A DNA stretch of 49,785 nt from Pseudomonadota bacterium (GCA_043825875.1 JBDRRF010000091.1:1-49785), one strand, 5' to 3'; positions 203 through 49,597 are shown, numbered from the stretch's first letter. Program-made: numbers and translations. The notes: a model not told the origin generated them from the letters alone.

Positions 203-958
203 ATGATGTTAGAAGGTAAATCGGCAATTGTAACAGGCGCCGGAAGAGGAGTAGGAAGAGGAATTGCTTTGGATTTTGCAAGAGAAGGCGCTGATGTCTT
301 GGTAAATTATAGCAGCAGCGAAGCAGCGGCTAACGAGGTTGTGAAGGAAATAGAAAAAATGGGCCGTAAAGGCATTGCCGTTAAGGCTGATGTTTCCAAA
401 GAAGAAGATGTAATCAATATGTTTAAAGCCGCCATCGACGGTTTCGGCAAGGTTGATATACTGGTAAACAATGCCGGTAATTCGGCTCCCGGAATGTTTC
501 ATAAGATGTCTACGGAAAAATGGGACAGCGTAGTGGATATTCATCTTAAAGGAACGTTTTTATGCATGAGAGAAGCCGCCAAACACATGATAGAAAAACA
601 GCAGGGAACAATTCTTTGTGTTATTTCGGTAGCAGGTATTCAGGGTTCGGTAGGCCAACCGAATTATGCAGCTTCTAAAGGCGGAGTTATTGGTCTGATT
701 AAAAGCGGAGCAAAAGAACTTGCACGTTATAATGTTACTGTCAATGCGGTAAGTTTAGGAATAGTATCTACCGATATGACATCTAAAATTTTATCAGATC
801 CTAAATTCAGGGAAGCCACACTTGCAAGAGCATTGCTGAAAAGACCTATGGAACCGGAAGAAGTTGGTAAAGTTTTTTCATTTTTGGCATCGGATGCCGC
901 CAAGATAATTCAGGGGCAGGTTATTGCAGTTGACGGAGGCATAGCAGGCTTAGGTTAA
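203..958 (+). CDS. Short-chain dehydrogenase/reductase, FabG-like 3-oxoacyl reductase family
   Basis: TGAGRGVG cofactor motif, NNAG, catalytic YAASK, GGAGG RBS. Confidence 0.9.
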   Translation: MMLEGKSAIVTGAGRGVGRGIALDFAREGADVLVNYSSSEAAANEVVKEIEKMGRKGIAVKADVSKEEDVINMFKAAIDGFGKVDILVNNAGNSAPGMFHKMSTEKWDSVVDIHLKGTFLCMREAAKHMIEKQQGTILCVISVAGIQGSVGQPNYAASKGGVIGLIKSGAKELARYNVTVNAVSLGIVSTDMTSKILSDPKFREATLARALLKRPMEPEEVGKVFSFLASDAAKIIQGQVIAVDGGIAGLG

Positions 959-983
959 TTTCTTAAAGATAAAGACAATATAT

Positions 984-1025
984 ATCCCTAAGCAAAAAGT
1001 CTAAAACGACTTTTTGCTTAGGGAT
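984..1025. terminator. Intrinsic terminator-like hairpin between convergent genes
   Basis: ATCCCTAAGCAAAAAGTC ... GACTTTTTGCTTAGGGAT, a perfect 18-bp stem after the SDR stop. Confidence 0.8.
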
Positions 1026-1160
1026 TAATTTTTTATGGGGCAACAAGTTTTTTCAATTATACAATCATCTATTATGGCAAATGTCATAAATTAAGTTTCG
1101 TACAATTACAAATTTTATCGCTTGCTCAAATCCGTTTTTGACTTTGGAAAGAACCATCGA

Positions 1161-1478
1161 TTACGCTTTGATCATTGTTAATAACATTTTAAAATTTTTA
1201 ACAGCCTTTAAAGCATGGGGTTTATTGGCAGGCATTATTATCATTTCACCTTGTTTTACATTAAATGGGGTACCTGCAATTGTTATTTCCACCTCACCAT
1301 CTAAAACCTGAACCAAAGCATCAAACGGGGCAGTATGTTCGCTTAAGCCCTCTCCCTTATAAAAGGCAAATAAAGTAACAGTCCCTGCTTTCTTATCGAT
1401 TATGGTTTTGCTTACAACCAATTCCTTTCGATAATCCACCATATCAGCTAATCTTCCAATTTTCACATCATCACTCAT
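1161..1478 (-). CDS. Cupin domain protein
   Basis: LSEHTAPFDALVQVLDGE and MPANKPHAL cupin motifs; GGAG RBS. Confidence 0.88.
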   Translation of the reverse strand: MSDDVKIGRLADMVDYRKELVVSKTIIDKKAGTVTLFAFYKGEGLSEHTAPFDALVQVLDGEVEITIAGTPFNVKQGEMIIMPANKPHALKAVKNFKMLLTMIKA

Positions 1479-1695
1479 AGCTTTTTCTCCTATTCTAATA
1501 ATCTTTTATTATGGTTGGATAAATATCTTAGATTTTCACGTATTCAACAGTTTAACAAAAATTTATGCCCGAAATATGAAACATAATTCTATATGTTTTT
1601 TCATATAAAACAAACAATTCTTGATATAAAATAAAATATGCCGGATACTAAGTATTCAAAAATGATGGCTTTGCAGCCAATGTATTTTATAACTT

Positions 1696-1837
1696 GAGCC
1701 ACTTTCAAAACGTTTAAGTTTGGTCAAGCTCAAGGCGGGAGAAAATTTCAACCACAGGAATACATTTAGTATTTCGAGGATTGAAATTTGAGCCCAACGC
1801 AGAGATCGGCCAAAATGGGGCGTTTTGAAACTGGCTC
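1696..1837 (+). mobile_element. 142-bp MITE-like element, subfamily A, copy 2
   Basis: 17-bp TIRs with 1 mismatch; flanked by 4-bp direct repeat ACTT (1692-1695, 1838-1841). Confidence 0.92.
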
Positions 1838-1892
1838 ACTTGCTTAATCCAGGTAATTTGCCGTTAAAATTCTAACTTTTTTTAGCTCTATT

Positions 1893-3272
1893 ATGTTTAA
1901 AAAAATATTAAACAATAAATTCTGGACCGGATTTCCTTCATGGTTATTAATAGGTGCTTTTGCAGTACTTCTTCCTATTTTTGCTTTCACAACGGCGCAA
2001 AACATACAACGCTGGAATACCTACAATAATCGTCTTTTACTTGAAAAAGGCACATCGCTTATACGTTCTTTTGAAGCCGGCACAAGAACCGGAATAATGG
2101 GAGATTATATAGGCAGCTTTCATCTTCATAATCTATTAACTGAAATCGCAATACAACCTTATGTATCATATATTCTTATAACAGACTCCGAAAAAACTAT
2201 TGTTGCCCATGATAACCCCGATTATGAAGGTGAACCTTATAAAACCGATATTGATCTCAAGAAGACTTATCTGTCAGATGAAATACAATGGCATATTATT
2301 AAAACACCGGATAAGGAAAAGATATTTGAAGTATATAAAAAATTTAATCCTGTTGGTGGCTTTTTCCGCGAAGGGATGATGCGTAAATTATTTAACCCTC
2401 AGTATAATATAAAAAACCCCAGGCAGGCGGAACTTATAATATTTGTCGGCCTTGACATGTCTTATGTTGAACAGGCAAGAAAAGCAGATACAAAACACTA
2501 TATATTTATGGGAATAGTATTACTGCTGGTAGGTTTTGGAGGCGTTGTACTGCTTTTTATGACTCAAAACTATAAAAATACCAAAGCCTCTTTAACGAGA
2601 GAAATCGCAAGAAGCCAGCGCCTTGCATCTCTTGGAAGTCTTGCTGCAGGAGTAGCGCATGAAATAAGAAACCCACTAAGTTCCATTAAAGGTCTTGCAA
2701 CCTATTTTATGGAACGAAATGAAGAAGAGGAAGATAAAAACGTTGCAAAAATTATGATCAGCGAAGTAGACAGGCTTAACAAAGTTGTAAGCCAATTGGT
2801 AGAACTTGCAAGACCGGTAACCATATCAAAGCAACCTACTCTGCTTAAATCCGTAATAGAAAATTCAATTAAGCTTCTCGAAAGAGAAGCTTTTGGGAAG
2901 AACATACAAATTGCAACAAATATTTCTTCTGAAGAAATTGAAATAGCAATTGATAAAGATAGAATAACACAGGTTTTATTAAATCTTTTTCTTAATGCAA
3001 TTGAGTCCATGGAAAAAGGCGGCAAGCTCACTATCGATGTTTTAGAAAAAGATAAAGGAGTGCTTATTAAAGTTTCAGATACAGGATCAGGTATTGACAA
3101 AGATGATCTTGCTCAAATTTTTGACCCGTATTTTACAACAAAATCAGGCGGAACAGGACTTGGGCTTGCGATAGTTTATAACATAGTAGAAGCTCATGAC
3201 GGTAAAATTACAGCGCAAAGCCTTTTTGGTAAAGGAACGGCGTTTACTATTTTTCTGCCTGGAACAAAGTAG
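1893..3272 (+). CDS. Membrane sensor histidine kinase (ZraS/NtrB-like)
   Basis: Two TM segments, H-box AHEIRNPL, N box NLFLNA, G boxes DTGSG and GTGLGL. Confidence 0.92.
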   Translation: MFKKILNNKFWTGFPSWLLIGAFAVLLPIFAFTTAQNIQRWNTYNNRLLLEKGTSLIRSFEAGTRTGIMGDYIGSFHLHNLLTEIAIQPYVSYILITDSEKTIVAHDNPDYEGEPYKTDIDLKKTYLSDEIQWHIIKTPDKEKIFEVYKKFNPVGGFFREGMMRKLFNPQYNIKNPRQAELIIFVGLDMSYVEQARKADTKHYIFMGIVLLLVGFGGVVLLFMTQNYKNTKASLTREIARSQRLASLGSLAAGVAHEIRNPLSSIKGLATYFMERNEEEEDKNVAKIMISEVDRLNKVVSQLVELARPVTISKQPTLLKSVIENSIKLLEREAFGKNIQIATNISSEEIEIAIDKDRITQVLLNLFLNAIESMEKGGKLTIDVLEKDKGVLIKVSDTGSGIDKDDLAQIFDPYFTTKSGGTGLGLAIVYNIVEAHDGKITAQSLFGKGTAFTIFLPGTK

Positions 3273-20996: not shown

Positions 20997-22259
20997 TCAT
21001 AATTTTTGAGATTCGCTAGTTGTTTGCGCAGCGCTACGCCCAGCTATCCAGCCGGTTGAGAATGCCGCCTGTAGATTGTATCCACCTGTATCAGCCTGAA
21101 TGTCTATCAGCTCTCCAGCAAAAAAGAGACCCTTTGTTTTCTTGGATTCCATAGTTCTGGGGTCAATTTCCCGGGTGTCTATTCCCCCAGCTGTTATAAT
21201 TGCCTCGGCAAACGGTCTGTATCCAACAACATCAAGACGAAAATCCTTGAGCCAGGTCCTAATGCGCAAGCGTTGTTTTGCAGAGATATTGCAGACCTGA
21301 TAATCGGCTGGTATTCGTATGAGATCAAGGCAGACAGGAACCATTTCTCTCGGGATTACCCCCCGCAGAAAACTGCTGATTTGCTCCTTGCCCCTGGAAG
21401 CAATGTCTCGCAAAAGACGTGCATCAAGTTTTTTTTCATCAAGGGCGGGTTTGAGATCAAGGGAAAGGGTGATTTTGTGCCCATTGCGCAAGCTGTCCAC
21501 CGCCTCACCGCTCAGGGTGAGAATTGCAGGTCCTGTCAATCCAAATTCGGTAAAAACTATTTCACCGAATTCTTCCCTTTTTTTCTTACCGTTTACAAGC
21601 ATTTTGGCTTTGACATTGCGAAGGTTGAGACCAGTCATCCTTTTTGCTTCATCTCCTGAGGTTTCAAGTGGAACAAGCGCCTGGCGGACCGGTATTACTG
21701 TATGTCCTGCGAATTCAGAAAGGCTGTAGCCGTCTCCGGTTGAACCTGTAGCCGGATAGGAGGCTCCGCCCAATGCCAAAATAACGGCATCACAGGAGAT
21801 TTCCCTGCCTTGAGCAACAACACCAATGATGCGTTTGTTATGTATCAGTATTTTATCAACAGAAGAGGAATTCTTTATAGCGACTCCTGTTTTTTTATTC
21901 CATTGCAGAAGAACTCTGTGGACATCCGGCGCTTTGCCGCTTGCAGGAAAAACCCGGCCGCCTCTTTCTGTTGCCAACTCTAAACCCAGCTCATTGAAGA
22001 ATTCCATGAGATCGGTATTGAAGAACCTGGCAAAGGCTTGACGAAGAAAAGAGCCGGTTTTGCCAAAATGGGAAATAAAGTCGGATATCCCGGCGATATT
22101 TGTGATGTTGCAGCGGCCCTTTCCTGTAATACAGAGCTTGAGTCCGGTATGTCTCATTTTTTCCAGTAGAAGTGTTTCAGCTCCCGCTTGTGCTGCCTGT
22201 CCCGCAGCCATAAGTCCTGCAGGGCCACCGCCTATAACAATTATTCTTCGCGCCTTCAT
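20997..22259 (-). CDS. HI0933/BaiN (YhiN) family flavoprotein
   Basis: GGGPAGLMAA, TGKGRCNITN, GGASYPATGSTGDG, TGGYNLQAAFSTG motifs. Confidence 0.93.
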   Translation of the reverse strand: MKARRIIVIGGGPAGLMAAGQAAQAGAETLLLEKMRHTGLKLCITGKGRCNITNIAGISDFISHFGKTGSFLRQAFARFFNTDLMEFFNELGLELATERGGRVFPASGKAPDVHRVLLQWNKKTGVAIKNSSSVDKILIHNKRIIGVVAQGREISCDAVILALGGASYPATGSTGDGYSLSEFAGHTVIPVRQALVPLETSGDEAKRMTGLNLRNVKAKMLVNGKKKREEFGEIVFTEFGLTGPAILTLSGEAVDSLRNGHKITLSLDLKPALDEKKLDARLLRDIASRGKEQISSFLRGVIPREMVPVCLDLIRIPADYQVCNISAKQRLRIRTWLKDFRLDVVGYRPFAEAIITAGGIDTREIDPRTMESKKTKGLFFAGELIDIQADTGGYNLQAAFSTGWIAGRSAAQTTSESQKL

Positions 22260-22688
22260 ATATTCTTTGCCATCTTTAATCCTATAAAATGGGGTCTATA
22301 TTTGACCCTTAATTACTTTTTCTTTTAAAGATTGAATCTCTTTCCCAAATATCTTGTCTGTTTTTGTCATACATGCAATTTTTTTAGACAATGCTGCTCA
22401 CTGTGCTGTATGTGTTTATATTAAATACTTCTTTTATCATATGCAGTATTAAATATAAAGCATAATAACATACCCCCATTCTTACCCAAAGTGTGCCTTC
22501 AGCATAACCGCATTTGTATCTTTTCTAAGTCCAGAGGTTTATAAATAAATACAAAAGCGTATTATTGCAAAAATTCTACCGATAGGTTATATATAATTTC
22601 AAATCAATTTAAATAATTGCTTATAATATTGGATCTGAAAATTTAAAAGGTCAAATCTATTATCACATATAAGCTGGAGATTATTATC

Positions 22689-22937
22689 ATGAGAGAAGAA
22701 CAATTACTCGAACGAATCACTTTTAATCCAAAAGTCATGGTAGGTAAACCTGTTATAAAAGGAACTCGTTTAACCGTTGATTTTATCCTTAATCTTTTGG
22801 CACATGGTACTACAGAAAATGAGATTTTGAAAGAATACAAGGGCCTTACAATGGAAGACATACATGCTTGTTTCCTTTTTGCCACTAAGTCCCTTAAGAA
22901 CACTGAATTTATGCCGCTTATGGCAGAGCATTCCTGA
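22689..22937 (+). CDS. DUF433 family putative antitoxin
   Basis: RITFNPKVMVGKPVIKGTRL signature. Confidence 0.9.
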   Translation: MREEQLLERITFNPKVMVGKPVIKGTRLTVDFILNLLAHGTTENEILKEYKGLTMEDIHACFLFATKSLKNTEFMPLMAEHS

Positions 22938-23287
22938 TGCGATTTATTGTAGATGAATGTACAGGCCCGGCTGTGGCCCAATGGCTCCGCAATCAAAATC
23001 ACGAAGTATTTTCGGTTTTTGATGAAGCAAGAGGAATGAATGATGATGATATCATCTTAAAGTCGCAGGTAGAAAATTGGATTTTAATAACAAATGATAA
23101 GGATTTTGGTGAAAAAGCATTTAGAGATAGCCGACTTCACGGGGGCATTATCCTGCTTCGCCTTGAAGATGAGAGATCCCAATCAAAAATTCAGGTGCTT
23201 TCACGTCTTCTCAAGATATACCCGGATAGACTGCTAAACACTTTTGTTGTTGTTACTGAAAAGCAGGTACGTTTTGCCCGAAGATAG
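22937..23287 (+). CDS. DUF5615 family PIN-like putative toxin
   Basis: MRFIVDEC and ILITNDKDFG; TGATG overlap with DUF433. Confidence 0.88.
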   Translation: MRFIVDECTGPAVAQWLRNQNHEVFSVFDEARGMNDDDIILKSQVENWILITNDKDFGEKAFRDSRLHGGIILLRLEDERSQSKIQVLSRLLKIYPDRLLNTFVVVTEKQVRFARR

Positions 23288-23412
23288 GAATTGATTATCG
23301 GTAAGTTGTATTAATTCTATACATTTGAGGCTTTCATATAGGGAAGTATTAGTGTCAAACCTTGATCTGTGAATATATACACTAAACCAATAAGGTGAGT
23401 AGACCGATTTTT

Positions 23413-23937
23413 TCAATTTAAAGAAGAAATCACATTCACAATATCCCGCATCAAAACCCAGATATTATTCAACATCTCCTCCATTTTACCTCCATCAAAA
23501 ATAAACTCATTTTGCATCAGTTTCCCCACATACCCCAGCACCGCCAATGACGGCATCATCAAATACTTCGTCGCCGTTGACAAAGTCGTCCCAACCTTTT
23601 GAAGAGTTGCCTTCTCATTATCAGACAACTCCGCATAAACCTTCTTCTCTTGATTCTTATCAGAAGCCGCCTTATTCGCCGCAGTCGCCGCATCATTCGC
23701 CGCCTTTTTCGCCGCATCTGCCGCCTTCTGTGCATCCGTTGTAGCTGTAGTTGCTGTGTTTACTGTTTGTTGAGTCTGATCTGTAGATTCTACAGGAAGT
23801 CATGCTCCGAAAACATTTCACACATAAATATCCTTTTGAAAACAAGCCAAAAATCAAACTATCAGAATACAAATCAAGAATAGTTTTAAATCTTTTTTGG
23901 ATGACTTACGATATTTTCCAATTTTTCTTTTTAACAT
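23413..23937 (-). pseudogene. 175-codon frame interrupted only by three TGA codons; 3'-truncated exported/membrane protein gene of probable foreign origin
   Basis: ATG at 23937; in-frame TGA at 23854-23856, 23818-23820 and 23800-23802; no TAA/TAG. Basic N-region, hydrophobic stretch and Ala/Thr/Lys-rich linker, in frame with track ORF 23413..23628. Confidence 0.6.
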
Positions 23938-23960
23938 CTCAAACTTATTAATAAAAATAT

Positions 23961-23986
23961 GTCATTCCCGCGAAGGCGGGAATCTA
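23961..23986. repeat. REP-like palindrome GTCATTCCCGCGAAGGCGGGAATCTA
   Basis: ATTCCC-N8-GGGAAT hairpin, same form as Neisseria dRS3; single copy in the window. Confidence 0.7.
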
Positions 23987-23988
23987 TC

Positions 23989-25005
23989 TTAGCTAAGATT
24001 ATTTACTAACGTATACATTCTTTTGATTACATTATTATAATGAATTTCAGCAGATTTTAGCCTATTTGGGTCTCTCTTATCTCTTAAATAATCTTGAATT
24101 CTTTGTGATAATAAATCATGCATATAATCATTAAAATCCACATAAGCCGATTCATTTTTTATCTTATTCACATCAACCCCTTTCAACATTTTATCCAAAA
24201 TCCCTTTCATCTGATTATGAAGAGCCAAAAAATCTGCTTCTGTCTTTGGGTTCTTGTCTAATCTTATCCGCGGCGCCTCATTCCCCACCACCTCTATTTC
24301 AACCTTCCCTTTCGGCGCTAATGTGCCAATCAGATACTCACTATCGTTCCCTTTATGCCTTCTTAACCAATACCTTAATTCCTCAATAAATTTACTTTCC
24401 CATCCATCTTCAAAAGGAATAAATTCAAAACGTCCGTTAGCTGTACTAAAAGCAATACCCCTTCCATCAACCACTTCCAAAAATTGATTAAGCGCTCTTT
24501 TTCCTGTTCTTAAGGATTCTAACGCTTCCTGAATTTCAGACGGAGAAACTCCTCCGAACTTCTTGATAATTAAATCTTTACCTCCTTTGATATATCGCTT
24601 CAATGACAATCCCTGCTCCAGTTTCTCCACTTTCGCACGAGGCTTGTTCACATTCTTAGGATTTTCACCAGCAAAAGCAGACACCGGCAACATCAGCAAC
24701 ACAGCCGCCATTGCTATTCGAAGCATTTTTTGGACATTTCCCACTCCTTCCGTAAATTTCACCTTATCTAAAGCTTGATCTACCATACCGCTCATATCCA
24801 CTTCACTCACTTCCTTGCTAAGTTCCCCTTGAATTCCTGACTTATCCAACAATTTAGCTAAATCATCTACTTCTCTTTTTTCTACTAGCCCATCCTCTAC
24901 AGTTTGTTTCAAAGCCTCCAGCAAAGCATGATCTTGCTTCAAAACAGCTTGAACTTCCTGATTCGCTAAAACATCTCCCGTAATTCCGCGTACCTTTGCA
25001 TTCAT
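23989..25005 (-). CDS. Hypothetical protein with an internal signal-peptide-like segment
   Basis: 338-aa ORF, strong AAGGAGG RBS, hydrophobic IAMAAVLLMLPVSAFA near residue 100. Confidence 0.8.
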   Translation of the reverse strand: MNAKVRGITGDVLANQEVQAVLKQDHALLEALKQTVEDGLVEKREVDDLAKLLDKSGIQGELSKEVSEVDMSGMVDQALDKVKFTEGVGNVQKMLRIAMAAVLLMLPVSAFAGENPKNVNKPRAKVEKLEQGLSLKRYIKGGKDLIIKKFGGVSPSEIQEALESLRTGKRALNQFLEVVDGRGIAFSTANGRFEFIPFEDGWESKFIEELRYWLRRHKGNDSEYLIGTLAPKGKVEIEVVGNEAPRIRLDKNPKTEADFLALHNQMKGILDKMLKGVDVNKIKNESAYVDFNDYMHDLLSQRIQDYLRDKRDPNRLKSAEIHYNNVIKRMYTLVNNLS

Positions 25006-25209
25006 TTACGCCTCCTTCAACCGCAATCGGTATTGTCAAAAAGTGTTTTGCATACCTTATCCCATATACTACCCAGTATAATTTCGACCAAAGAGAAAAT
25101 ACTTTACCAACACCATGCTATAGCCTGTTATTTTTCCTCCCCCATATTTTAAAGCATAATATATTGTATATCGGAACATTCTTTTAATATATTTATAGAA
25201 CTTTTAACA

Positions 25210-25431
25210 TTACCAAACAATTTTTAAATTATCCAAATCAGTTCCGTCACAGAAGATATCCGCTTCTTCATTTGGGAAGACTTGAGTTACTTCAGGTCTA
25301 AATACAATGACGTTAGAGGATTCTTTAATTCGCTTTGCATACTTGCCTCGTACAAGGCCGCCGGGAAAATCTGAGCGCTTATATTCCTCCCGCAAATCGT
25401 CTTTATCAGGTTTTTTATTATCCTTCTTCAT
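25210..25431 (-). pseudogene. BrnA-like antitoxin with probable replaced C-terminus; toxin reduced to a few codons
   Basis: DDLREEY..VRGKYA..PEV..VFPNEEA family pattern followed by an unrelated tail. An overlapping upstream frame reads RELYEEG-stop, like a BrnT C-terminus. Confidence 0.6.
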
Positions 25432-25440
25432 AGAGTTCTC

Positions 25441-25530
25441 GCTATCCTCGAAATACTAAATGTATTCCTGTGGTTGATATTTTTCTCCCGCCTTGAGCTT
25501 GACCAAACTGAAACGTTTTGAAAGTGGCTC
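25441..25530 (-). mobile_element. Truncated MITE subfamily A copy
   Basis: Reverse complement of the first ~87 bp of the element; ends at the internal hotspot, retaining GCT of the inserted unit. Confidence 0.85.
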
Positions 25531-25544
25531 CTTTGATTTGTGAT

Positions 25545-26756
25545 TTAATAAAGAAACCCGAACAAATATAAAGGTATTGTATTGCCGCTCGGATACAGGA
25601 TATCATCTTTTACTATAAACGAGTTTTCAAGGTTGTTTTTAATCTGTTTTTTTGATTTGTTCTTGCCGCCAATCTCAAAGAAATAGTCTTGCACTTGAAA
25701 ATCACCAATTTTGCTGTAAAATAATTTCTTCCCTGAATTTTGCATCATCTTAATGAAAAAAATTTCTCTCACAGTACCTTTATTATACGCAAAACCGATT
25801 TCATCAATTATTGCTTTGTAAATATTGGAATTATCCAGGTAGATTTTTTCAGTTTGTTTTATCAGGCCACTGCCTGATCTGTTTTCTTTAACAAGGCAAA
25901 CGAGACCGGTTTCATTTAAGATTCCCAGATAGTTCTCAACTGTTTTGTTATCAAGCCCAATATGCTTTGAAATACTGTTTCGATTCAACTGACCCGGTGA
26001 AATAGTAGCCAGATATGAAAGGATTTTCCTGAAATTGTTTAAATTTTCCGTTTTGAGTTTGTAAAAATTGGATATGTCTTCATATATCGTTTTATCAATC
26101 ACGTTTAATAATTTTTGATGATAATTATTTTCATCCTCAAACAAAAATGGGTAGTATCCATATTCGAGATATTCCTGAAAATGCCCTTTTATTCTTTCAA
26201 TAAAGGCTATTTGTTCTATGAAAGCATCCGGATTTTCAATCAGTTCATCAAAGCTTATGCCCGGAATGGTTCGGCCCAACCGAAATTCAAGATACTCCCG
26301 AAATGACATACCTCCAATTGTAAAAACCGCCCCTCTTCTCGACAAATCATAAGCGCCATGGATTAAATTCATACTGGAACTGCCGGAAAAAACAATTTTA
26401 ACATCCGGATATGAATCATAAATATTTTTTAATTCCTGATTCCAGGCAGGATATTTATGAACCTCATCTAAGAAAAAAATGCGAATGCCATCAATTTCGT
26501 ACAGATCATCAACAAAATCGAGCAGATTCGACTGTGTAAAATATATATTATCTAAAGAAAGATAAATACATTGATTCTTGTTTTCAATCTGCTCATTAAT
26601 ATATTGAAGCATCAGGGTCGTTTTGCCGGTCCCGCGCGGACCGACCAGCCCTGTAAGTCTGCTTTCCATATTAAAGGATTTAAATAAATAACGATATGTG
26701 CTGTAGTTTGTATTTTTAAGTAACCTTCGATAAACAGCTTTGAAATTGTCTCTCAT
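25545..26756 (-). CDS. AAA_14-family ATPase (DUF4143-associated)
   Basis: GPRGTGKT Walker A, FLDEVHKY Walker B, SGSS, DLSRR, FEIGGK. Confidence 0.88.
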   Translation of the reverse strand: MRDNFKAVYRRLLKNTNYSTYRYLFKSFNMESRLTGLVGPRGTGKTTLMLQYINEQIENKNQCIYLSLDNIYFTQSNLLDFVDDLYEIDGIRIFFLDEVHKYPAWNQELKNIYDSYPDVKIVFSGSSSMNLIHGAYDLSRRGAVFTIGGMSFREYLEFRLGRTIPGISFDELIENPDAFIEQIAFIERIKGHFQEYLEYGYYPFLFEDENNYHQKLLNVIDKTIYEDISNFYKLKTENLNNFRKILSYLATISPGQLNRNSISKHIGLDNKTVENYLGILNETGLVCLVKENRSGSGLIKQTEKIYLDNSNIYKAIIDEIGFAYNKGTVREIFFIKMMQNSGKKLFYSKIGDFQVQDYFFEIGGKNKSKKQIKNNLENSFIVKDDILYPSGNTIPLYLFGFLY

Positions 26757-26864
26757 TAGATTCTACTCCATATATATCAATTGATTATTGGAGTGTATTC
26801 TAATTTATGTGATTTATCAAGTTGTTTTTTTCGTGCTTCCCGGTGTACTTTGCGAAGTATTATT

Positions 26865-27019
26865 GGGCTCAAACCTTGAATTGTGATTTAAGAAAGAAAA
26901 CTTGTATCTCAAAAGTACTACCATGGTAAATATAAAAGCGTTTAAAAAAGAAATCTCCAACCGCTGTTCGTTTGTGCTTCTTAATCAACAATCAAAGGGC
27001 TGTTGCCCAAACCGCTTTT
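26865..27019 (+). repeat. ~155-bp imperfect direct repeat, copy 1
   Basis: Colinear with 29310-29463 (shared AAGAAAACTTGTATCTC, AAATATAAAAGCGTTTAAA, CCCAAACCGCTTTT). Confidence 0.9.
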
Positions 27020-27084
27020 CTTTTTCAACTTCTCCCCTCTAATATCGGAACTAAAGATATTCCTGTGCTCAATTCTCCCAATCA

Positions 27085-27696
27085 TCAAATATGCCCCTTA
27101 TCTAACATAGCCAGAAAATCATCGCTGCCAAGGGGAAACCCGGTCTTTTCGTGCCGATAGAACAAATCTGCCTCCTCCATCGGCCTGGGTTCGGCAATAA
27201 AATACTGCCACCCCTTTTTAACCCTTTCAAGCAGTGGTTTTACCAGCACTAAAGAATCATCAGTACCTGCGATATGAGCACGGGCACTGCTCCAAGGCCA
27301 ATCTTCCGGCTGGTCGACGTACTCTCTTTTGACCGGATTTATCTCAATATAGCGGGTACAGGCAATCAGGTATTTTTCATCAAGCAGATGTGATGAGTAT
27401 CGTCCCTGCCAGAACTGACCGCTTTTGCCAGTCCGACGGTTTATATACCTGGTGTACCGACCATGGGCCGATCGAAGGCAGCTGGAAAGGGATCTCTTTT
27501 CCATGGGAACAGCAATGAGGTGAACATGGTCCGGCATCAGGCAGTAAGCCCAGATCTCCACACCATGCTTACGGCAGCAGTCAACCATAATCTCTATGTA
27601 GACTGCATAATCATTTTCATTCAAAAAGGTCTGCCGCCCATGTAACCCGCGCTGGATAACATGATGTGGCAGCCCCGGCACTGTAATTCTTTTCAT
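27085..27696 (-). CDS. REP-associated tyrosine transposase (RAYT, IS200/Y1 HUH family)
   Basis: PGLPHHVIQRG, HUH motif MPDHVHLI, FWQGRY, catalytic RYIEINPV, WPWSS. Confidence 0.9.
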   Translation of the reverse strand: MKRITVPGLPHHVIQRGLHGRQTFLNENDYAVYIEIMVDCCRKHGVEIWAYCLMPDHVHLIAVPMEKRSLSSCLRSAHGRYTRYINRRTGKSGQFWQGRYSSHLLDEKYLIACTRYIEINPVKREYVDQPEDWPWSSARAHIAGTDDSLVLVKPLLERVKKGWQYFIAEPRPMEEADLFYRHEKTGFPLGSDDFLAMLDKGHI

Positions 27697-28098: not shown

Positions 28099-29260
28099 CT
28101 ATTTCCATGACGATACTTGCTCTATATTTGAGTGAATCTGATAAAATCTATTTTTAGTGGAATAACCCCATCCAATCCGAAATTGCTCAATATCGTGAAT
28201 TATCTGAGCCTCATCTTGATTTGATATAAAGCCTGCTTCGGTATAAATATCTGCTGGATTTTTCTTATTTACTTCTTCTGGATTAAGGCCTCCTCCGGTC
28301 AAACAAATTGTAAACCACCAATCGGCATCTTTTAGAACAAGTTTCCTAAAGAACGTAGCAGCTTGTTTAATGCCGAGGTGCTGAGTTCCTAATGCCTCAT
28401 ATATATCGGCATTACAAATTTTTAAAGAAGCCATCAGAATGGTTCCAACCCCTATACACCAACGTATTTGGCCTTGACTTGATTTATCTGTCTCTAAAAC
28501 GTGTCCCATAATTCTAAAGACTTCTTGGACTTGTCTCGGAGTCATTTCCATAGAGCTAATTAAATTAACAATGTCTTCAAGCCGAGATGGATCAACAGAC
28601 AAAAAGCAATAACGTTCATTCTCTTTTTGCATGTAATAACCAACGTATTCCGATGCTAATGTATGGTAGATTTTTATACTTGGCTTCGGAAACATTACTT
28701 CTCTTTGTACAAATTTACGATAATATTCTGGAAAATTAAGATCGTTACCAAAAGCTGCTTTTGCGGAGCATTCTAATTGTTTGCGATCTACAGCTAAAAC
28801 GAAAATAATACCGTAAATATCAAATATATGATTTATTGTCTCTAAGTATGAAATTGCGTAATCAGGTCTACATCGGTCGAGTTCATCAACCAATATCAAG
28901 ATAGTTGGATTGTTATCCTTAATGAGTTTTTTGATCGAATTTTTTAGTGCCTGTAATGACTTCTTCTTTACCCAATGATTCAAGGAGAGCCGACACAATC
29001 GATACAAGAGGATCACCGCAGTAGTCATCGTTCCAAGCGTTCACTTCTACTAATATTATGTCATTAAATTTACTTTTGTTTTTTATGATACGATCTGACC
29101 ACATTTTTAAAAAAGTGCTCTTCCCAGTGCCAAATCCTGCGTTTAAGCTAATGACAAGACTTTCATTGACATAACGATGCTCTACTTTGATAAAGCTCTC
29201 CAGTTTTTCGGCAAATTGCTGAAGGTCAAGAAGATCTTCCTCAAATGTTGAAATTTTCAT
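28099..29260 (-). pseudogene. KAP-family P-loop NTPase, frameshifted
   Basis: Walker A AGFGTGKST and NAWNDD in ORF 28919..29260; Walker B VDELDRCRP in ORF 28099..29028; frame change near 28965. Confidence 0.85.
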
Positions 29261-31620: not shown

Positions 31621-31807
31621 GAGCCACTTTAAAAACGTTTCAGTTTGGTCAAGCTCAAGGCGGGCGAATATTTCAAGCACAGGAATACATAGAGTATTTC
31701 TATGATAGCGCTAATGGTTAGCGCTGATGCTTCACTACGTGTCACTTCGTGCGAAATTTAAGCCCAACGCAGAGTTCGGCCCAAATGGGGCGTTTTGAAA
31801 CTGGCTC
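31621..31807 (+). mobile_element. MITE subfamily A copy with +45-bp nested insertion
   Basis: Same TIRs; 4-bp TSD TCTT; internal extra AGCGCTAATGGTTAGCGCTGATGCTTCACTACGTGTCACTTCGTGC. Confidence 0.9.
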
Positions 31808-35175: not shown

Positions 35176-35339
35176 GAGACCTCTGCAAAACGATCCCTTT
35201 TACACGATTCCTTCGTCAGGTTCAAATTTCGCACGCAGTGAAGCTTTAGCGCTATCCTCGAAATACCCTAAGTATTCCTGCGGTCAATATTTTCGCCTTC
35301 CTTGAACTTGAGCAAAATTGAACATTTTTCAAAAGTCTC
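35176..35339 (-). mobile_element. MITE subfamily B copy with +22-bp insertion
   Basis: GAGAC...GTCTC ends; core homologous to subfamily A; extra GCACGCAGTGAAGCTTTAGCGCT relative to 48596-48737. Confidence 0.85.
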
Positions 35340-48527: not shown

Positions 48528-48873
48528 ACAAAAGCCCCATGCTTCAATTATCTGAAGATTGGGGCTTTTTATATCCGGTCATGTTCAATCCTTTTGAGAC
48601 CTTTGCAAAACGCCCCTTTTTACCCGATTCCATAGTCAGGCTCAAATTTCAATCCTCGAAATACCCGATGTATTCCTGTGGTTGAAATTTCCGCCTTCCT
48701 TGAACTTGAGCAAAATTGAACATTTTTCTAAAGTTTCATCCTATAAATAATAAAATGAGATAATGGATTCTTGTTTCCAGAAAATGCCAAAACGGTATAA
48801 ATTGTATAATGAACAACAATACAAAATTTTGGCTAACACTTTGGATAAATTAAATCAATAATTATTTATATTG
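48528..48873 (+). repeat. Duplicated array-leader region, copy 2
   Basis: Colinear with 35107-35475. Confidence 0.92.
48596..48737 (-). mobile_element. 142-bp MITE subfamily B copy
   Basis: Same length and core (AAATTTCAATCCTCGAAATAC..GTATTCCTGTGGTTGAAATTT) as subfamily A reversed; GAGAC-type end. Confidence 0.85.
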
Positions 48874-48917: not shown

Positions 48918-49597
48918 CTACTTACCGTATTTCCGTTTCTTTTCTTTAACTGTAAAACCTATTTTCTTCTTCGGCTTGCTTTCAACAACCAACATATGAT
49001 CCAACGTCTCAAATACAACCTGGAAACGATCTTCGGTAATTTTTTTGAGTTCTTCAAGCTCTTTTCTGAGATCAGCATTCTCAAGAAGCATCCGACTTAA
49101 TTTTGCAAATGTCCTCATGATCTGAGCCACTTTCAAAACGTTTCAGTTTGGTCAAGGTCAAGGCGGGTGAAAATTTTAACCGCAGGAATACACGGAGTAT
49201 TTCGAGGATTAAAATTTTCACCCAACGCAGAGATCGGCCAAAATGGGGCGTTTTGAAACTGGCTCATCTGTATATTTACATAAATCGGCACGTTTGCTGT
49301 TTAAAACGCTGGAAAGCATGGCAACACCTTGTTCAGTAAAGGCCATGGGTTTATATCTCAAGCCCATCTTGTCGGCATTGGAGGTCACAAATTGTGACCT
49401 CCAATTTTCAAATTCTTCTATTGACAGCTCAAACATGAAGTCAGGAGGGAAGCGGTCAATGTTTCTTCTGACCGCCTTTTTAGGACTTTTGTCTCTACTT
49501 CGTAGAGCTCTGCTAAGTCTCTATCAAGCATAACCTTTGAATCCCTTATAAAGTATATTTTGCTGACAATCGTTTCTGCTGGTAATAATTCAGTCAT
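48918..49597 (-). pseudogene. ORF6N-domain DNA-binding protein, disrupted
   Basis: [36 protein letters not shown] and KKIGF. 1-nt deletion near 49478, 1-nt insertion near 49287, and a MITE insertion. Confidence 0.9.
49124..49265 (+). mobile_element. 142-bp MITE subfamily A inserted in the ORF6N gene
   Basis: TSD ATCT (49120-49123, 49266-49269); removal restores NIQIMRTF. Confidence 0.95.

Follow-up and report, generated by a model that had tools for sequence, protein, structure and literature searches.

The locus and its reading frame

The window is a stretch of 49,785 nucleotides and forms the entire contig C91 of G000, a genome of 4.77 Mb (99.8% complete, 0.8% contamination) from a groundwater Pseudomonadota bacterium of sulfate-reducer type; it has dsrA, selA and ComEC, encodes RF2 and uses TGA as the stop of 559 of its about 1990 long ORFs. 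On the minus strand a frame opens at ATG 23937 and meets TGA at codons 28, 40, 46 and 175, with zero TAA or TAG. The original prediction had taken this frame for one gene that is intact only if TGA is a sense codon, and our re-reading from the same ATG returned its three internal TGAs without any TAA/TAG, as well as the hydrophobic segment it had described, which lies at codons 15-37 when TGA is translated as glycine. The three internal TGAs do lie in foreign DNA; the terminal one is past the right junction and has to be taken out of the gene. The foreign sequence ends at about 23427 (…GTG AAT GTG ATT T), where homologues go on VNV[VI]FVL, so that the frame is the 5′ fragment of a gene of 822-1016 codons, and the match to host DNA of G008, a genome of the same genus, begins at 23393. 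As a bare pattern such a frame is common by chance, since 4477 frames in G000 reach 130 codons or more with at least two TGAs and no TAA/TAG (162 of them without an overlapping long ORF), and homologues are therefore needed to decide the case. The features at the locus are the following.

22689..23287, plus strand: host DUF433/DUF5615 gene pair at the right junction, with homologues in congeners
23413..23415, minus strand: terminal TGA, codon 175, beyond the donor-like sequence, closing the frame by accident
23427..25261, minus strand: foreign insert of about 1.83 kb from a G041-like Patescibacteria lineage, made up of the end of an upstream gene, intergenic sequence, a complete 338-aa gene and the first (5′) fifth of a VirB6-like gene
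23427..23937, minus strand: first 170 codons (5′ fragment), truncated by the right junction, of the gene for a polytopic membrane protein resembling VirB6/TrbL
23800..23802, minus strand: TGA codon 46, presumably Gly; no reliable alignment there
23818..23820, minus strand: TGA codon 40, presumably Gly; no reliable alignment there
23854..23856, minus strand: TGA codon 28 (Gly), in a variable region, opposite G in the homologue P0004 and F in the G008 and G041 alleles
23960..23983, minus strand: short palindromic hairpin between both donor genes, found in both alleles, which we take to be REP-like
23989..25005, minus strand: intact 338-aa gene with no TGA, a hydrophobic segment at aa 94-113 and a variable C-terminal part
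24618..25211, minus strand: 5′ block near-identical to the G008 insert (98-99% identity), with an abrupt drop at about 24618
25229..25261, minus strand: probable final 10 codons of an upstream donor gene, GYLL*RN*FG-TAA, with two further TGAs (asterisks)
25260..25431, minus strand: small host gene, presumably antitoxin-like, broken by the insertion after …FPNEEA; intact in congeners G002 and G014, where it continues …EEAVN
25444..25530, minus strand: 87-bp dispersed host repeat with very many copies in G000
25545..27696, minus strand: host AAA_14/DUF4143 gene and Y1 (IS200-like) transposase gene, 98% to G008

The coding strand of the insert is strongly G-skewed, and no second copy of the insert was found in G000. 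At the left junction the insert and the broken host gene, which matches no Pfam family, overlap by 2 nt (GG). A Y1 transposase gene lies 1.8 kb away; among the ORFs and the repeats listed the insert itself has no recombinase or integrase, terminal repeats or target duplication, and no prophage context was seen at the locus. The 33-nt tail at 25229..25261 is suggestive of the end of an upstream donor gene, its likeness to the corresponding terminus in G041 (GSALLGYLFS) being a resemblance of four residues only. For the 338-aa protein we found two homologues, the G008 allele (63%) and a 411-aa G041 gene at the same position (28%, E 1e-29), and neither a Pfam family nor a usable Atlas match. TGA makes up 0/25, 0/26 and 0/24 of the Gly codons in the three alleles of this neighbour gene, which removes the caveat, attached to the original prediction, that its lack of TGA sat badly with a recoded donor. 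A gene without TGA could be translated by the host; a promoter scan of the insert stayed at chance level (8 vs 6.4 ± 2.6) and so leaves host expression unsupported.

Within the window the 87-bp repeat also occurs at 1-86, 1696-1781, 31621-31710, 35250-35328, 48652-48726 and 49124-49209; it is often located at contig ends and is common to the genus and the order. Other genes of the window include a KAP-family P-loop NTPase present as two overlapping ORFs (28099-29260) and a stand-alone archaeal-type threonyl-tRNA synthetase editing domain (PF08915, 20499-20906). The DUF433 block (22430-23393) is found elsewhere in G008, without DUF5615 (L011:4651-5200), a 414-bp skip at DUF433/DUF5615 also appears in sequencing runs X2-X4, and the region is rearranged between both hosts.

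Authenticity of the insert and a second allele

A chimeric assembly had been named as a possible cause of the pattern. In run X1, one Logan contig of 11,016 b spans both junctions (21800-25469) with 0 differences and at a depth of 27.8, the same as the flanks and the next host contig; this evidence comes from assembled contigs, not raw reads, and X1 is possibly the window's own source. The G008-type allele is present in runs X2 and X3, which stem from two other studies, and its depth in X2 is 19.1 vs 19.3 for host DNA; runs X2-X4 share only 0.10-0.18 of the words.

A DNA search of 41 genomes recovered an insert at this site in one other, G008, and a protein search matched the insert in 2/17 genomes of the genus. 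In a sample of 301 genomes of the host order that did not include G008, the one match was G000 itself, with none in the 300 others. A metagenome scan gave only a locus identical to the G008 stretch and hence no new allele, a search of the 174-aa fragment against longer proteins returned nothing, and no RNA runs containing the window stretch were found. Further recoded or G041-like fragments in G000, judged by eye and by identity to 1.30 of the ~1.5 Mb of G041, were none of them convincing.

The two host alleles differ in an uneven manner. Over the first 129 codons window and G008 have 127 identical codons, 0 synonymous and 2 non-synonymous changes, and over 62 codons of the VirB6 core 40 identical, 15 synonymous and 7 non-synonymous. 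Since a host cannot select on a gene that it cannot translate, the divergence of the core presumably arose in the donors; a second donor allele would have crossed over at about 24618. G008 lacks ~207 bp across the left junction and retains the whole VirB6-like gene. The Y1 transposase gene, the AAA gene and the shared 5′ part are 98% identical between the hosts, above the genome-wide range (median 93.7%, 95th percentile 97.9, 127 fragments), so that this block may also have moved between the two hosts.

G008 also carries, on its contig C22 (L217:about 690-2660, minus strand), a broken P-type ATPase gene with an internal deletion and no proper start, adjoining a partial duplicate of the start of a host HI0933-like gene. 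Its identity is 71% with G041, 62% with G453 and 44% with a congener, and it has 0 TGA in 622 codons where the G041 counterpart has 4, which means that gene classes differ between relatives or that its donor was a code-11 sister. Judged from these sequences, donor DNA would have been taken up on at least two occasions. A DEAD-box helicase of G000 (C96:7299-8870) shares 67% identity with a G041 protein across 533 aa, more than the distance would suggest, and a transfer in either direction is possible.

Glycine at the TGA positions

The cut gene of the window has TGA at 3/10 of the Gly codons of its 170-codon fragment, and the same gene can be followed over its full length in two other alleles, namely an 822-aa ORF in G008 with 8 TGAs, intact only on TGA read-through, and a 1016-aa allele in G041 with 14 TGAs, both without TAA/TAG. 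TGA124 of G008 (DG*SMEE) stands opposite GGT in the window (DGGKMEE), and TGA512 and TGA631 of G041 stand opposite G in G008; G outnumbers every other residue in two TGA columns of the core, 12 each among 42 other rows. Only one of the three TGAs of the window itself is opposite a G, in a variable region. When the TGAs of G041 were aligned to G000 proteins, 27/63 faced G, including the Walker A glycine of PilT, and 0/63 faced W or C; ordinary G041 Gly codons face G at 66%. TGG is used for Trp in the same TGA-carrying genes. The database fragments P0019 and P0020 stop exactly at a shared KE[AT]-TGA site, where P0018 has G. At 5 columns with G in both alleles the homologue P0004 has W, likely because its source mistranslated a TGA=Gly gene with table 4, and it likely comes from the donor's wider lineage. 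We are close to certain that the insert is real and that its TGA means glycine.

The right cut falls within a conserved WVLMRDIVNV block, and the motif W..MRDIVN, which the original prediction had likened to Patescibacteria membrane proteins, proved a sound lead, the family occurring in 238/401 genomes of the phylum (a tally that includes one unpublished genome, G195, on which alone no claim rests). Over the membrane core the identity to G041 is 71%, and none of the other 237 matching genomes exceeds 33%. Pfam TrbL is matched by 4/43 family members (best E 2.4e-5, under the curated cut-off for P0013), and the G008 allele has no Pfam match, the TrbL profile included. An AlphaFold model of the core (pLDDT 80) matches the R388 stalk chain 7o3v_F with Z 10.4 over 245/261 residues at rmsd 6.4, tied with generic helical bundles; Foldseek gave nothing at E 0.001 and a PDB sequence search no clear family. 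There is thus moderate evidence for a VirB6/TrbL-like protein, and the fragment of its gene is dead in the host.

A donor relative among the Gracilibacteria

A pattern scan of GTDB yielded 248 matching stretches, one of which was confirmed, at locus L012 of G041, "Ca. Gracilibacteria bacterium PL25b_bin.48". There a 326-aa gene (5 TGA) is followed by a TGA-free 411-aa gene and the 1016-aa allele (14 TGA), the same gene order as in the window, and next come tsf, rpsB, rplA and clpC, all with no TGA. Searches of its family and order gave G041 alone in the GTDB set examined.

In an RpoC tree G041 is found among TGA-free, RF2-positive (code-11) genomes, and AU tests reject its placement within the code-25 clade with p 0.002 without G455 and 0.012 with G455, these being quick-mode trees of one gene with AU tests on 16/31 rows and SH-aLRT 92-97 at the G041 node. 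PilT of G041 shares 61-62% identity with code-11 genomes and no more than 55% with recoded ones, and its TGAs were therefore likely gained in place. We are highly confident that the donor belongs to the G041 lineage. The idea of an alternative-code donor accordingly holds for the Patescibacteria and for TGA as Gly, not Trp, and is not supported for a canonical table-25 donor (BD1-5/Absconditabacteria).

Very low TGA counts in the RpoC match are also seen in RF2-less code-25 genomes, 0 in G549, 1 in G518 and 3 in G527 (L177, L180 and L178, respectively). G455 (L208-L215, L170) forms a long branch sister to the code-25 clade; its RpoC is TGA-free, RF2 was not found, and its TGA fraction is 0.02 in conserved genes and 0.11 in others (91 kb only). 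It is possibly a second partly partitioned lineage.

Release factor 2, tRNA(UCA) and two classes of genes

The RF2 of G041 scores 464 bits against a TIGR00020 cut-off of 370, has SPF, GGQ and the TGA frameshift site, and lies 3 kb from a PilB gene with 5 TGAs on the same contig. Its frameshift site (C59, L076:6963-8070) reads GTT-TGA-C, the usual form in RF2 genes being CTT-TGA-C, and a suppressor tRNA would interfere with RF2 autoregulation there. The tRNA(UCA) of G041 (C1:4485-4561, 77 nt) carries G1:C72, C2:G71, G3:C70 and U73, bases covered by the glycine identity rule as set out in PMC8629427, and selA was not found in G041. The tRNA-Gly(UCA) pattern occurs in 51/401 genomes of the class, 50 of which share one sequence type and have no RF2 (0/50), so that the two are found together in G041 only (1/51). 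The G041 tRNA is 66-68% identical to canonical tRNA-Gly(UCA) and 59-61% to the genome's own tRNAs, and may thus have been borrowed sideways; BLAST with it against 141 class genomes gave two weak matches only. At C53:17177-17254 ARAGORN reports, at relaxed threshold, a tRNA-like gene with an 8-base anticodon loop (ttaa).

Sense TGA in G041, a single MAG of which 1.30 of ~1.5 Mb was examined and the sole genome behind the dual code, is confined to a minority of genes. TGA is absent from 792/1026 ORFs and found mid-gene in 128, some of these being spurious frames, and 59 ORFs of at least 300 aa have at least two TGAs. Among 429 conserved genes with a host homologue, 408 have no internal TGA and 21 have it mid-gene; 16 conserved genes have TGA only in the final 40 codons, several exactly at the end of homology (lepA, purA, argF-like), and since in most of these a TAA/TAG follows the terminal TGA by only a few codons, read-through there could also be harmless. 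The genes with TGA inside the alignment, named from alignments to host proteins and from their sequences, include three PilB, PilC, two PilT, two MacB-like, TrkA/H, a Kef-type antiporter, a P-type ATPase, an MFS transporter, and GGDEF and cNMP-binding proteins. In PilB, PilC, PilT, MacB-like, Trk, P-type ATPase and VirB6-like genes TGA occupies sites of conserved glycine. VirB4-like and coupling-protein-like genes carry TGA as well, the VirB4-like gene on another contig than the VirB6-like one.

The split is far sharper than a uniform spread would give. Gly-rich genes without TGA number 453/530 vs 234 expected if uniform, and lineage-specific genes with zero TGA number 215 vs 80 expected; in the control G549, RF2-less and low in TGA, 20 were found vs 19.4 expected, on 240 kb with noisy ORF calls. 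The two genes of our locus fall in the same two TGA classes across all three alleles. TGA-rich and TGA-free genes alternate on the same G041 contigs, so binning error is not the explanation, and the TGA genes are clustered. Proteins with a hydrophobic segment are enriched in the TGA class (37/63 vs 169/505 of the TGA-free proteins, p 1.4e-4); the TGA-free genes include a ComEC-like gene and some genes of the pilus loci, and with so many secreted or membrane proteins free of TGA, a 'host-attack regulon' is a guess. TGA is also enriched at the 5′ end of genes (35% vs 14%), an excess that AT-rich or mis-called gene starts could cause, and sense TGA and GGA are followed by similar bases, giving no context signal. 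G041 encodes giant surface proteins of 5395 aa with 28 TGAs (C31:12900-29087), of 3373 aa with 26 TGAs (C33:35647-45768) and of 4050 aa with 0 TGA for 239 Gly (C42:7565 onward).

G041 is not canonical code 25. It has UGA for glycine and a tRNA(UCA) of Gly identity, as table 25 would have it; its RF2 is not lost, Gly-UGA is not genome-wide with the stop function abandoned, and its RpoC does not group with the code-25 clade. Genome sequence points to G041 probably giving UGA both meanings, glycine and stop.

A proposed mechanism and its alternatives

Our main reading, to which we assign a probability of about two in three, is that the insert comes from Patescibacteria (class Gracilibacteria) with TGA=Gly, and that the lineage likely reads UGA dually, with Gly-UGA in a subset of genes serving as a translational gate. 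RF2 and the suppressor tRNA would compete at UGA. With the tRNA scarce, genes of the TGA class would yield short abortive peptides; with the tRNA induced, likely on host contact, pili, T4SS and some surface proteins would be made. We propose a regulated switch via UGA tentatively, at somewhat less than an even chance. Donor DNA may have entered the host by uptake, through transformation or during attachment, followed by illegitimate recombination, as suggested by the host ComEC, the 2-nt junction overlap and an insert that has no integrase or terminal repeats. Later, in one lineage, homology-anchored recombination may have exchanged the 3′ part for that of a second donor allele. Repeated capture further suggests that the donor lineage lives on the sulfate-reducer genus, a host-parasite link that may hold but on which we would not yet wager. 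In its boldest form, which we regard as speculative and more doubtful than either of these parts, the proposal is of parasitic Patescibacteria with two codes per cell, code 11 for housekeeping and host-contact genes (for pili, T4SS, signalling, ion transport and one class of surface proteins) UGA-locked until suppressor tRNA-Gly outcompetes RF2, with an origin apart from code 25 and with captured scraps that name the host genus.

The donor may equally have been no partner of the host, in which case free groundwater DNA entered a debris-collecting region; this account, compatible with either reading of the code, we consider nearly an even bet. The host ComEC and the many unrelated small or broken genes of the region suit it, as does the presence of the insert in only 2/17 genomes of the genus, whose 98% flanks indicate a history that is in part common. 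It is harder to square with two alleles and a P-type ATPase that all point to one rare lineage with a single GTDB genome, and among the contigs listed for X1 there was no free donor allele of at least 88% identity at the locus.

The same donor may also read UGA dually without any regulation, as an ambiguous intermediate or a partial reversal with constant read-through, TGA drifting in only where a partial yield is tolerated. RF2 and tRNA do coexist, the tRNA was perhaps acquired sideways (66-68% canonical vs 59-61% own), gene classes differ for the P-type ATPase, and only 16/408 conserved genes end at TGA, as expected on the way to reassignment; an ancestor of this kind has been proposed for the Eggerthellaceae (PMC13462651). 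Constant partial read-through, however, would nearly abolish proteins with 14-28 TGAs, genes tend to have many TGAs or none, with those of the TGA class grouped as neighbours, and TGA is carried by PilT and PilB, which are likely important, when long low-profile genes have none. An unregulated state seems to us less likely than the translational gate, which remains our reading.

A canonical table-25 donor (BD1-5 or Absconditabacterales, RF2 lost), with the neighbour gene TGA-free by codon bias, would account correctly for TGA=Gly, and some RF2-less genomes do use few TGAs (0, 1 and 3 in RpoC of G549, G518 and G527). It is improbable given that the VirB6-like core is 71% identical to G041 vs 24-31% to low-TGA code-25 genomes, that G041 contains a syntenic homologue of the 338-aa gene, and that the AU tests reject G041 together with the code-25 clade. 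Still less credible is a chimeric assembly or a contaminated bin, whether for the window or for G041. Such an error is suggested by the MAG status of both hosts and G041, by evidence from contigs of a run that may be the window's source, and by a host join in X2 of only 43 letters beside a repeat; yet an independent assembler spanned both junctions at flat host depth, a different allele occupies the same site in a second species, and TGA-rich and TGA-free genes of G041 alternate on the same contigs, with RF2 and PilB within 3 kb. A pseudogene whose nonsense codons arose by chance, or a reading of TGA as Trp (table 4) or selenocysteine, can be dismissed in spite of the chance frequency of such frames, the host selA and the five W columns of P0004, because there are full-length alleles with 8 and 14 TGAs and no TAA/TAG, no aligned TGA of 63 faces Trp or Cys, TGG is Trp in the same genes, the tRNA has Gly identity and G041 has no selA.

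Implications

It has long been asked how a living bacterium turns a stop codon into a sense codon, and an intermediate with RF2 and a suppressor has so far been proposed as an ancestor (PMC13462651); G041 makes this dual-code intermediate directly testable. The all-or-none split raises the prospect that a life cycle is switched through the code, an idea put forward to date for phages and, for a cell, categorically new if true. In practice code callers would assign G041 table 11 or table 25 (coding fraction 0.79 vs 0.84), which breaks either pilus and secretion genes or gene ends. Dead recoded fragments in host chromosomes are donor tags that could be mined for the hosts of uncultured Patescibacteria. 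The chief limitation is that the case for a dual code depends on a single MAG together with captured fragments.

Comparison with known systems

Table 25 (JAEDAM01: BD1-5/Gracilibacteria, Absconditabacterales) shares with G041 UGA as Gly, the identity bases of tRNA-Gly(UCA), TGG as Trp and membership of the Patescibacteria; G041 is unlike it in keeping RF2, in having sense TGA in a minority of genes, in ending some genes at TGA and in its position among code-11 lineages. In PMC13695967, PMC8629427 and PMC6851277, RF2 and tRNA-Gly(UCA) are described as mutually exclusive in the genomes examined, and PMC13695967 mentions a Minisyncoccia genome that gives a table-25 signal, has prfB and lacks tRNA-Gly(UCA), and dismisses it as a poor assembly. 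Code 25 with RF2 lost is likewise described in a literature including PMC12455944 and PMC13059738, where the NCBI label "Gracilibacteria" is no predictor of the code. The full-text literature searched reports no RF2-positive, partly recoded Gracilibacteria genome, no extant case of RF2 plus suppressor and no insert like this one, a scope outside which subscription papers and the gTranslate Zenodo tables may list the genome.

Chromosomal T4SS of Patescibacteria are treated in PMC12102498, which found no VirB6 by HMM in class Gracilibacteria. The VirB6/TrbL of these systems and our protein are alike large, polytopic and phylum-wide, and the fold of our protein may resemble 7o3v_F; our protein has no Pfam match itself and is not beside virB4 in G041. 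As to the capture, homology-facilitated illegitimate recombination, with one homologous and one illegitimate end (PMC3240628), would fit the shared 5′ block, the allele switch and the differing right junctions. In contrast to that scheme the anchor here would be foreign DNA taken in earlier; alternatively, the donor population may itself contain mosaic alleles.

Recoding of stop codons in phages has been proposed as a timer of late and lysis genes by Borges et al. (bioRxiv 10.1101/2021.08.26.457843). Such phages, like G041, have a suppressor tRNA beside a working release factor, recoded stops in one gene class and a proposed translational switch, and the recoded stops of G041 are likewise found in one functional class, bimodal and clustered. 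G041 differs in being a cellular chromosome with its own RF2, in reading UGA as Gly, and in the genes concerned, which are for pili, T4SS-like functions, transport and some of the surface proteins. Further analogues are the conditional use of pyrrolysine in a bacterium and the context-dependent stops of ciliates.

The ambiguous-intermediate model (PMC13462651) predicts a state like that of G041, in which prfB and a UCA tRNA occur together and UGA is rare at gene ends. The intermediate described there is a hypothetical ancestor with Trp, whereas G041 is extant, would use Gly, and has an all-or-none split between genes that the model does not predict.
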